64,000 nucleotides of DNA from Candidatus Micrarchaeota archaeon (lineage in GTDB: Archaea > Micrarchaeota > Micrarchaeia > Anstonellales > Bilamarchaeaceae). The stretch is taken from positions 1 to 64,000 of the forward strand of contig JBDRPL010000019.1 of assembly GCA_043827025.1 (NCBI GenBank), in the 5' to 3' direction. The translations under genes were made by a program, and so were the position numbers. The notes under the pieces are model-generated. The model saw nothing but the letters and a program-made list of their open reading frames with translations. It did not search any database and had not been told where the DNA came from. Positions 4,430 to 49,038 of the stretch are shown here, one piece after another. Every line of letters starts with the position of its first letter. The stretch's first letter is position 1.

Positions 4430-5299
4430 ATGTTCTCAATCACTTTTCTTGGAACTTCTGCATCCGCTCCAACGCCAGAACGAGGCCTTCCATCCATTGC
4501 GCTTAACTATGAAGGCAACTTGTTCCTTTTTGATTGTGGTGAGGGTACGCAAAGGCAGATGATGAAATATAAAATCGGCTATGGAAGCATTGGTGCAATC
4601 TTTATTTCACACAGCCATCTGGATCATTATCTTGGGATATATGGCCTTATTGAAACACTTAATTTGAGTTCTCCGTCACCGAAGCCAATCAAACTATTCG
4701 CAAACGAATTGATGGAATCCAAATCGCTTTCTAAGAGAAAATTTGTGGATCGGCTCAACATAAAGAAGGGAAAAATCTATCGCGGAAAGAATTTCACAAT
4801 CACTGCGTTTCCTGTCACTCACACCGAGGATTCATTCGGCTTCATATTCCAGGAAGATGATAAAATCAAATTTCACGAGGAAAAGGCAAAGGGTATGGGT
4901 ATTCAGGGAATAATGTTCAGCGAAATCCAGAAGAAAGGATATGTGATAATAAAAAAGAAAAGAATTAAATTATCTGACGTAAGCTGGAAGAAACCAGGTA
5001 GAAAATTAGTTTATACTGGAGATACTGCCATCTGCAAGGAAGTTCTCAAGGCAGCGAAGGATGCTGATCTACTCATTCACGAGGCAACTTTTGATGAATC
5101 AAGAAAAGAAGAGGCAACTGAAAGAATGCATTCAACAGCAAAGGATGTTGCAGAGCTTGCTAAGAAGGCAAATGTCAAAGTATTGATGTTGACTCACATA
5201 AGCCCGAGATATTCAGATGTTTCATCATTGCTCAACGAGGCAAAGCCTATTTTCGAGAATGTTTTGATTGCAAAAGACGGAATGAAGTTCGATCTCTGA
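4430..5299 (+). CDS. rnz: Ribonuclease Z
   Basis: FLGTSASAPTPER, DCGEGTQRQ, HSHLDH, YTGDT, HEATF, HST, THISPRY. Confidence 0.95.
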   Translation: MFSITFLGTSASAPTPERGLPSIALNYEGNLFLFDCGEGTQRQMMKYKIGYGSIGAIFISHSHLDHYLGIYGLIETLNLSSPSPKPIKLFANELMESKSLSKRKFVDRLNIKKGKIYRGKNFTITAFPVTHTEDSFGFIFQEDDKIKFHEEKAKGMGIQGIMFSEIQKKGYVIIKKKRIKLSDVSWKKPGRKLVYTGDTAICKEVLKAAKDADLLIHEATFDESRKEEATERMHSTAKDVAELAKKANVKVLMLTHISPRYSDVSSLLNEAKPIFENVLIAKDGMKFDL

Positions 5300-15948: not shown

Positions 15949-16061
15949 AGCCCCTGGAGGGATCTTCAGCTTGCTGACGAATTTTGGTCGTCAGACCAAA
16001 GCTATTGAACCCCCGACCTCAGGTTTACAAAACCCGCGCTCTACCACTGAGCCACAGAGGC
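15949..16061 (-). tRNA. tRNA-Thr(TGT) with a 41-nt T-loop intron (59/60; intron 15963-16003)
   Basis: GCCTCTG/CAGGGGC acceptor; CGGGT-TT-TGT-AA-ACCTG; BHB with TTCA/TGAA helix and bulges AT|A and GA|T; spliced T-loop TTCAATT. Confidence 0.92.
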
Positions 16062-16544: not shown

Positions 16545-16638
16545 GCAGGGGTGGCAGAAGCCTTGAACCGTTGTTCAAGAACTGCCAAGTTGCTTCGCAA
16601 CTCAAATCCCTGCTCACTTCGTTCGCAGGGGTGGCAGA
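16545..16638 (+). repeat. 14-bp direct duplication of the tRNA-Leu 5' end with internal inverted copies
   Basis: GCAGGGGTGGCAGA at 16545-16558 and 16625-16638; complements CTGCCA (16582-16587) and TCCCTGC (16607-16613). Confidence 0.85.
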
Positions 16639-16902
16639 GCGGTCAAATGCGGCGGGCTTAGAAAGGCTTTTTTGAACAAGTACAGACATGTGGCAAAAAA
16701 CCCTGGAAACACGAATGAACTTTGTTCATTGTGTCCATTGAAATCGAAAACGATTTCAATCGGGAAGCCACGTGGTATTACTTCCAACAAATGTCTTATG
16801 AAACCCGTTGGCCTAGCGTCTACGCAGGTTCGAAACAGAGCCCCAGCGGGCTCCGTACCTTTTGCAACCAAGAGGTGCAATACGAAAACCCTGCCCCCTG
16901 CA
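16625..16902 (+). tRNA. tRNA-Leu(TAG) with two introns: 140 nt at 37/38 (16663-16802) and 54 nt at 59/60 (16835-16888)
   Basis: GCAGGGG/CCCCTGC-A acceptor; GCGGG-CT-TAG-A|A-CCCGT; long variable arm; T-loop TTCG/CGAA helix with cut sites AA|A and AA|C. Confidence 0.88.
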
Positions 16903-16971
16903 TTTTTTATTTGTAAAAAATGTTGACTCCTGAACGTCGGTTCAGGCCTGCTGCAATTTTATTGCCATAAC

Positions 16972-39071: not shown

Positions 39072-39204
39072 AAAAACATCCTCCATTAGTTCGAACTGCA
39101 CTTCGTTTCATTCAAGGATGTCGTTTTTTGTAAAATAAAAAAATCGCCATGGCAAGAACGCATTCGTTCTTGACTGTCGAAATTTTTTTTAAGAAAAAAA
39201 ATTT

Positions 39205-39330
39205 CGCCAAGGACCGGATTTGAACCAGTAATTCCTTGCGGAACTAGATTTCAAGTCTAGCGCACTACCGGGTTGCATGCTCTGCGTGCAATTTTGAACG
39301 CGCACGTTCAAAGCTTTATGCGACCTTGGC
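39205..39330 (-). tRNA. tRNA-Ser(TGA) with a 43-nt D-loop intron (15/16; intron 39273-39315)
   Basis: GCCAAGG/CCTTGGC-G; CTAGA-CT-TGA-AA-TCTAG; long variable arm; GCAT/ATGC helix with cut sites AA|A and AA|C. Confidence 0.92.
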
Positions 39331-39471
39331 GAATGAATATGAGCCATGGTTATTTACCGAGAAGGTAAATTCACCCTTGGCAACGAACGTGAGTGAGTCT
39401 CAAAATTACTATTGTTCTGGCAAACGTTTTTATTGTTTCCTTCTGAGAATATGTTTATGAATTCTGTAAAT

Positions 39472-48827: not shown

Positions 48828-49038
48828 CGCCCCCGTCGGGGATTTCGCTTCGTTTTTTGGTGCCGGTTTTTAGGCATCCCGAAAAAGCGGCTTCGAACCC
48901 GAGTCGGAAGAGGACTGTAAACCTTGGAAAGAGTTGTTTGATGAAACGTTTTCCAAAAAGTTTCTGACAGTCTCCTATGCTAACCACTGTGTGCTTTGAG
49001 TATCTCTAAAAGTACTCAAAACTCTACACTACAGGGGC
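48828..49038 (-). tRNA. tRNA-Asp(GTC) with three introns: 37 nt at 15/16 (48987-49023), 52 nt at 37/38 (48913-48964), 50 nt at 59/60 (48842-48891)
   Basis: GCCCCTG/CGGGGGC-G; GGAGA-CT-GTC-A|C-TCTTC; central helices GTGT/ACAC, CTGT/ACAG and TTCG/CGAA. Confidence 0.92.

Follow-up and report, generated by a model that had tools for sequence, protein, structure and literature searches.

The tRNA-Ser(UGA) locus

The window analyzed here, a stretch of 64,000 nt, is part of contig C19 of an archaeal genome (G000) of 1.33 Mb that is 92% complete. Its minus strand carries a tRNA-Ser(UGA) gene, flanked by an Lrp/AsnC regulator gene on one side and a spermidine synthase gene on the other, with a leader unit in front of it and a trailer unit behind it (Table 1). 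The same tRNA-Ser type occurs largely in Micrarchaeota and other DPANN records. The locus is not an assembly artefact, because another study (run X2) yielded a 272-nt contig that is identical to positions 39126-39397. Each of the flanking motifs listed in a first-pass annotation of this DNA was recovered by sequence at its minus-strand position.

Table 1. Features of the tRNA-Ser(UGA) locus and two further loci, by position in the window
Feature	Position	Strand	Basis or remark
RNase Z gene	4439-5293	+	TIGR02651 above cut-off
tRNA-Leu(UAG) locus	16545..16955	+	80-nt leader unit; gene 16625-16902, two introns; trailer unit
T tract, likely terminator	39132..39144	-	sequence
Outer 3' "copy" CCATGGCG	39145..39152	-	CCATGG linker of the repeat, joined to duplicated bases of the target
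Trailer hairpin 2, CAAG...CTTG type, CAAGAACG/CGTTCTTG	39153..39172	-	sequence, alignment
GACAGT linker of the free-standing repeat family	39173..39178	-	invariant in alignment A3
Trailer hairpin 1, G...C closed, A/T stem	39179..39205	-	occupies the place of the repeat unit's hairpin 1
tRNA-Ser(UGA) gene	39205..39330	-	G1 = 39330, discriminator G73 = 39205; ARAGORN tRNA-Ser(tga) after in-silico splicing
D-loop intron, 43 nt, position 15/16	39273..39315	-	relaxed HBh' motif: 4-bp H, 6-bp h'
Pyrimidine-rich unpaired spacer, 12 nt	39331..39342	-	between anti-copy and tRNA
Imperfect anti-copy CCATGGC	39343..39349	-	pairs with outer copy except for an A-A mismatch
Leader core: 4 nt + 7-bp hairpin + 2 nt	39350..39374	-	geometry recurs, stems covary
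Leader hairpin ATTTACC/GGTAAAT	39352-39370	-	sequence
Outer copy of tRNA nt 1-7, GCCAAGG	39375..39381	-	sequence
Spacer-like relic	39382..39396	-	resembles spacers of other leader units; no stable hairpin as drawn (fold)
TATA-like box AATAAAAA, putative promoter	39427..39434	-	upstream of leader unit

The tRNA gene is interrupted in its D-loop by an intron that the annotation had not mentioned. It shows a relaxed bulge-helix-bulge (BHB) motif, its removal in silico leaves a canonical tRNA-Ser(UGA), and by these two criteria it is a BHB intron; it also carries the only convincing splice motif of the gene. The intron is missing from the ortholog in a congener (G001) and from one DNA contig of run X2, and the paralogous tRNA-Ser(GGA), which does not have it, has an identical D-arm. 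Because of this intron ARAGORN is blind to the gene until it is spliced: the program reports no tRNA anywhere in the window, and relaxed settings return mostly noise. Upstream of the congener ortholog (L003) the context is similar to that around the TATA-like box. Transcription in Archaea terminates at oligo-dT, and on this ground the T tract behind the trailer is read as a likely terminator.

Rfam places 13 tRNA genes of this genome above its cut-off, against about 41 that we located by script and by eye (an incomplete list), so that standard finders miss most tRNA genes on account of their flanks and introns. The only Rfam match of the window is a tRNA-Thr(UGU) gene with a T-loop intron (15949-16061, minus strand); a tRNA-Asp gene with anticodon GUC and three introns (48828-49038, minus strand) is missed by both ARAGORN and Rfam. 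Some acceptor stems of the genome are imperfect, with a C6-A67 mismatch in tRNA-Val(UAC) and U6-U67 in two tRNA-Ala genes (G000:C35:4226-4298, C25:36758-36829, C32:53389-53550).

Leader and trailer units and their distribution

Leader units have a common layout, in which a copy of the tRNA's first 7 nt, at times extending to about 13, is followed by about 4 nt, a hairpin of 6-8 bp, about 2 nt, an anti-copy, a spacer of 4-26 nt and then the gene; arrays of two to four units are frequent. Automatic detection gave 49 units, and seven were dropped before counting (two likely due to chance, one whose copy was unlike its host, two that exactly duplicated others and two lacking an anti-copy), leaving 42. 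Copy and anti-copy differ by one or two mismatches in 35 of these 42, with a few registers mis-picked. In Ser, Leu, Met and Phe alike, the anti-copy follows its host tRNA. The central stem covaries in the 37 simple units: with the register held fixed, the count is 129 of 222 pairs, whereas shuffles average 96 and reach at most 120. The exact 4x2 register is found in 15 of the 37; the geometry is kept across families, and the 4-nt arms differ among units. Judged from sequence, this conserved geometry could equally reflect selection for RNA function.

The individual parts of the focal leader recur elsewhere. Its hairpin was found at 10 sites in the congener, and its 12-nt spacer is identical in front of tRNA-Val(UAC) and similar in front of Ser(GGA), Ala(GGC) and two Leu genes. 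The first-pass annotation had drawn a further hairpin, GAC...GTT, at the outer end of the leader, which does not form in the predicted fold and is better read as spacer; it is probably left over from a lost outer unit, and the congener has two leader units at this position.

The trailer resembles a repeat that is also found away from tRNA genes. Weak matches to trailer hairpin 2 in the congener revealed arrays in which one to three units are lined up, each consisting of the linker CCATGGAG, a hairpin, the linker CGACAGT and a second hairpin, with hairpin loops in both orientations within arrays. Two such arrays, of 161 and 174 nt, are found at the ends of genes whose translations read as a thermosome and an EF-2-like protein. 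Each lies between duplicated ATGGAG cores, at the last codons just before the stop, and preserves the C-terminus of the protein; the thermosome gene end in G000 is free of an array. The focal trailer aligns with these units, the TTGGCG of the tRNA taking the place of the core, and its 13-bp A/T hairpin includes C72-G73 of the tRNA itself. The exact trailer pattern occurs nine times in the congener, once in another genus (G049) and once here, that is, in 3 of 61 genomes, and a reversed control gave none. This genome holds only one or two copies of the unit, and a second copy of trailer hairpin 2 lies at C5:45421 on the opposite strand, unattached to a tRNA end. Sequence comparison thus identifies the trailer as a single unit, in the order hairpin, GACAGT, hairpin, CCATGG, of a REP/BIME-like tandem repeat that elsewhere lies at ATGGAG sites.

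This bears on a difference from the tRNA (CCATGG) that the leader anti-copy and the trailer copy had been said to share. The difference is present in both, but the trailer letter belongs to the fixed linker of a repeat that also occurs away from tRNA genes. In the leader, that letter may likewise derive from this linker or be coincidental; the leader anti-copy of the congener differs.

As the first-pass annotation had supposed, the copy/anti-copy scheme is not random. When the 120-nt flanks were dinucleotide-shuffled 20,000 times, the leader scheme (an exact copy, then an anti-copy with at most one mismatch) appeared once and a trailer copy 217 times; the two never appeared together. Genomic windows of 120 nt gave 16 leader schemes and 698 trailer copies among 22,054. 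A loose genome-wide scan returned 45 matches, reduced to 40 loci after a check by eye, and 11 of these lay at tRNA genes, which make up about 1.4% of the genome. Of the approximately 41 tRNA genes, 12 have a leader unit, 10 a trailer unit and 4 both, so that about 18 are affected. The parallel drawn earlier with the tRNA-Leu(UAG) locus holds, as both units are present there.

Among relatives the units come and go, in agreement with an expectation of the first-pass annotation. Our survey of tRNA-Ser in other genomes, with genes that have D-loop introns left out, covered at least 119 loci, of which 110 had enough flanking sequence. Among these 110 listed loci, 19 have a leader copy, 8 a trailer copy, 2 both and 85 neither, and the two units are unlinked (Fisher p=0.62); the automatic trailer test misses real units at L078, L106 and L128 and counts a doubtful one at L045. 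Introns are present at 21 of the 25 listed loci with units and at 57 of the 85 without (p=0.13), and gene length is 133 versus 102 nt (p=0.007). Since both comparisons include related genomes, which are not independent, and leave out genes that have D-loop introns, we do not rely on a link between units and intron load in this set. Two Ser genes, L093 (titled Aenigmatarchaeota) and L116, have their 5' end duplicated upstream over 38-41 nt, without an anti-copy, and possibly represent a separate type.

Origin of the units

Several features of the units speak to events in DNA. The core TCAG-hairpin-AC of a Ser leader in one genome (G018, sense) is identical, except for the loop, to that of an Ile trailer in another (G012, antisense), and such sharing of one core by a leader and, in reverse complement, a trailer points to insertion at the DNA level. 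The loops are asymmetric in a mirrored fashion: in 31 of 37 leaders the 5' side exceeds the 3' side by 1-2 nt, and in 8 of 14 trailers the 3' side exceeds the 5' side by as much. The trend is weaker in trailers, of which 2 are symmetric and 4 lean the opposite way, some of their windows being truncated. At informative sites, where the host pair is a wobble or the partner lies outside the stem, the anti-copies of Ser GCU, Thr GGU, Pro GGG, Lys and, in the congener, Ala UGC carry the Watson-Crick complement and not the opposite strand of the host; of the other such sites, Ser CGA is host-like, Leu UAG was mis-picked by the script and Thr of the congener is ambiguous. The anti-copies often keep pairing into the T tail. 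Hence the anti-copies are inverted copies, as opposed to remnants of a duplicated gene. Units have also been gained or lost between congeners.

Hairpin modules are shared between flanks and introns. A 40-nt module is identical in the leader unit of tRNA-Arg(CCU) and the intron of tRNA-Gly(CCC), and its family is found in several introns. The leuS promoter (L200, G000:C10) holds a 165-nt intron-like insert with a 28-bp direct repeat that includes the TATA box, and the corresponding site in the congener is empty; the Ile(UAU) intron, inspected by eye, contains an insert that carries a 7-bp repeat. The Val(CAC) intron has a module that is also found next to an IS200 end. At G000:C6:9700-11911, tRNA-Arg(CCU) and the EndA gene are separated by an IS200 tnpA, with an intron module, reversed, between the tRNA and the end of the IS. 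Because the same modules sit in the tRNA introns of this lineage, the flanking repeats may show how introns are gained.

The first-pass annotation proposed that the outer copies pair as a second acceptor stem enclosing the whole tRNA, which we regard as very improbable. The enclosing fold lies only 1.7 kcal/mol above the local one, among alternative folds within 2 kcal/mol, and four genes of this genome carry both units; against this, the outer copies are predicted to pair with each other at a probability of 0.03, compared with 0.53 for the outer copy and the anti-copy in the local leader hairpin, the stem would hold an A-A mismatch, the outer 3' copy is mostly repeat linker, and the units are unlinked across the listed loci. 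Least probable of all the explanations we weighed is that the units are non-canonical introns, from which the splicing endonuclease would leave the outer copies in the mature tRNA. The genome does contain many non-canonical introns and encode RtcB and an EndA, putatively of the epsilon2 type, whose one open frame of 418 codons is what that type would have. However, no splice motif excising either flank was found, since for excisions of 51 or 60 nt h' never exceeds 1 bp, as opposed to 6 in the D-loop intron, and the outer copies are often degenerate, whereas the inner ones pair fully. An HBh' motif at 73/74 of the focal trailer is weak, with two wobble pairs, and was set aside, as it did not recur in the other trailers checked by eye. 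With the enclosing stem weakly predicted, the units unlinked and no comparable splice motif in the flanks, it is the inner copies that complete the tRNA.

Template switching alone, in which a replication fork stalled at a folded tRNA gene copies back and restarts and gene conversion spreads the modules with no mobile element, is a rather unlikely source of the units. It would account for an inverted-triplication layout on either strand, for Watson-Crick anti-copies that extend into the T tail and for the two loop orientations within arrays, and template switching is described as creating stems and inverting loops (PMC8794818). It leaves unexplained the fixed linkers with variable hairpins at several sites away from tRNA genes in two genera and the single core common to different isotypes and genomes; moreover, identical units at unrelated targets and clean empty sites have in part been seen. 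We think that template switching probably acts on top of insertion. Selected minihelices are unlikely; these would be tRNA-like and excised as small RNAs by RNase P or RNase Z or would tune precursor processing. A t-element is a mimic of the acceptor plus T-arm that is cut by RNase P or RNase Z, and of its features, as far as sequence can tell, an acceptor-like stem is present, the T-loop is absent and the geometry is mirrored. The covarying stems, the conserved 7+4/2+7 geometry, a Leu leader design conserved across families and the shared unpaired spacer before G1 speak for selection, as do the tRNA-linked repeats (TLRs) of E. coli rRNA operons, which are transcribed and processed (PMC8144298). 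Nevertheless, leader and trailer are mirror images, so that one RNA-binding enzyme would face two shapes; the hairpin loop is not a T-loop, most listed Ser loci have neither unit, and trailer units generally lie behind a T tract. Highly unlikely, finally, are scars of integrase-type elements, that is, att duplications of a tRNA end whose cargo has collapsed. Archaeal plasmids and viruses do duplicate the 5' or 3' ends of tRNA genes (PMC3293823), but the in-gene repeats here are mostly 7-15 bp, cargo is absent, the anti-copy is left unexplained, both ends of genes are affected in some 18 of 41, and none of the loci inspected has a full element between two copies.

We consider it fairly likely, in preference to these alternatives, that the flanks are two independent insertions of gene-less, REP/BIME-like hairpin repeats, each of which duplicated a few bases of one end of the tRNA-Ser gene. 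The gene within would remain intact, and RNase P and RNase Z would trim the extra leader and trailer. Insertion may take place in single-stranded DNA where short cores look alike (TGG[A/C]G in this trailer), by strand transfer or template switching, and the anti-copy could arise by fold-back copying. It may be retained since its binding to the outer copy would protect folding of the acceptor stem; when the anti-copy was replaced in silico, predicted mis-pairing of the outer copy rose from 0.01 to 0.16-0.29. Tandem arrays would expand and contract by recombination between copies. Rpp29 is encoded in the genome, as is RNase Z, and an RNase P RNA (L031, G000:C15:6974-7234) matches at 58 bits, below the cut-off of 84 bits; at about 260 nt it is short and possibly of a reduced type. 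We rejected the loss of RNase P as a cause of the leaders, given this sub-cut-off RNA and Rpp29.

A broader proposal, which we hold only tentatively, is that a single process acting on single-stranded DNA places modules at look-alike sites together with a host-matched inverted copy of the target, and that the terminal units are a footprint of tRNA intron gain. Insertion at the ends of a gene would then yield harmless copy/anti-copy/copy units, and insertion within a tRNA gene would survive only as an exact, spliceable bulge-helix-bulge intron. A 2026 preprint on Asgard archaea calls the arrival of tRNA introns an open question and reports no general route (10.64898/2026.10.13.758758).

Our searches for tnpA, Cas1 and reverse transcriptase yielded no candidate mobilizer tied to the repeats. 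Three copies of Y1 TnpA are present in this genome, and the enzyme was not found in two genomes that carry units (G049 and G012, 93% complete); no linker motif was found beside seven Y1 tnpA loci. No Cas1-family integrase of casposon or CRISPR type was found in this genome, which is 92% complete. The only reverse transcriptase found was discarded as a mobilizer, as it is split by a frameshift and belongs to a DGR-like cassette (G000:C11:15976-18290), which comprises a target gene with a variable region, a template repeat and the reverse transcriptase, the frameshift lying in an (AG)n run. Free-standing arrays of the leader type were not seen, and only the leader hairpin recurs. IS200 elements follow a guide rule, given in general form in PMC3479197; this rule, applied by eye, fits CAGT/TGGA in the arrays of the congener but not leader units or other trailers; we treat it as a lead only. 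A second family of multi-hairpin intergenic mosaics was seen at G000:C10:48780-49060 and at L245, downstream of a tnpA of the congener, one copy abutting the right end of an IS200. Intron modules, intergenic mosaics and tRNA-end duplications share sequence within one lineage whose congeners have empty and filled sites, and these provide concrete substrates for finding the mobilizer.

Comparison with known systems

The units resemble both REP/BIME mosaics and E. coli TLRs, but lack defining features of both. With the REP, BIME and REPIN sequences served by RAYT (TnpA-REP), they have in common short imperfect hairpins, fixed flanking bases, the lack of genes and both orientations (PMC3479197, PMC6006769), as well as intergenic mosaic arrays and multi-copy palindromes, which are clear in the congener. 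In contrast to REP/BIME, GT(A/G)G is absent 5' of the hairpin foot, the trailer family having CAGT and TGGA instead; a repeat-flanked tnpA-REP gene (REPtron) was not found in these incomplete genomes; and the units duplicate tRNA ends and carry host-matched anti-copies. From Archaea, PMC6006769 reports only TnpA of the IS200-type subclass 1.1.

Like the TLRs of E. coli (tyrT/tyrV, rrA/rrB/rrF), trailer units lie behind tRNA genes and end in a copy of the host 3' end (PMC8144298). One to five TLRs are found per locus, they copy 18-19 bp of the 3' end, and their function is described as mostly unknown (PMC8144298). The repeat of the focal trailer is, by contrast, 6 bp if exact and 8 bp with one difference, reaching about 15 bp within the gene elsewhere, and our units differ further in that they also occur at 5' ends, carry an anti-copy and share modules with introns. 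Rfam gave no match to the focal units, and a description of such units was not found in the mostly open-access literature searched.

The focal D-loop intron is of the same kind as the non-canonical BHB introns of ARMAN-2, associated with an epsilon2 EndA (PMC3239211). Hairpin modules are common to such introns and the flanking units, yet no BHB register removes these units, and they do not require splicing. In Caldiarchaeum, a 5' tRNA fragment was left by an integrated element, a 1.8-kb insert with a recombinase (PMC3293823); the inserts described here, in contrast, are mostly 40-120 nt, gene-less and accompanied by an anti-copy.
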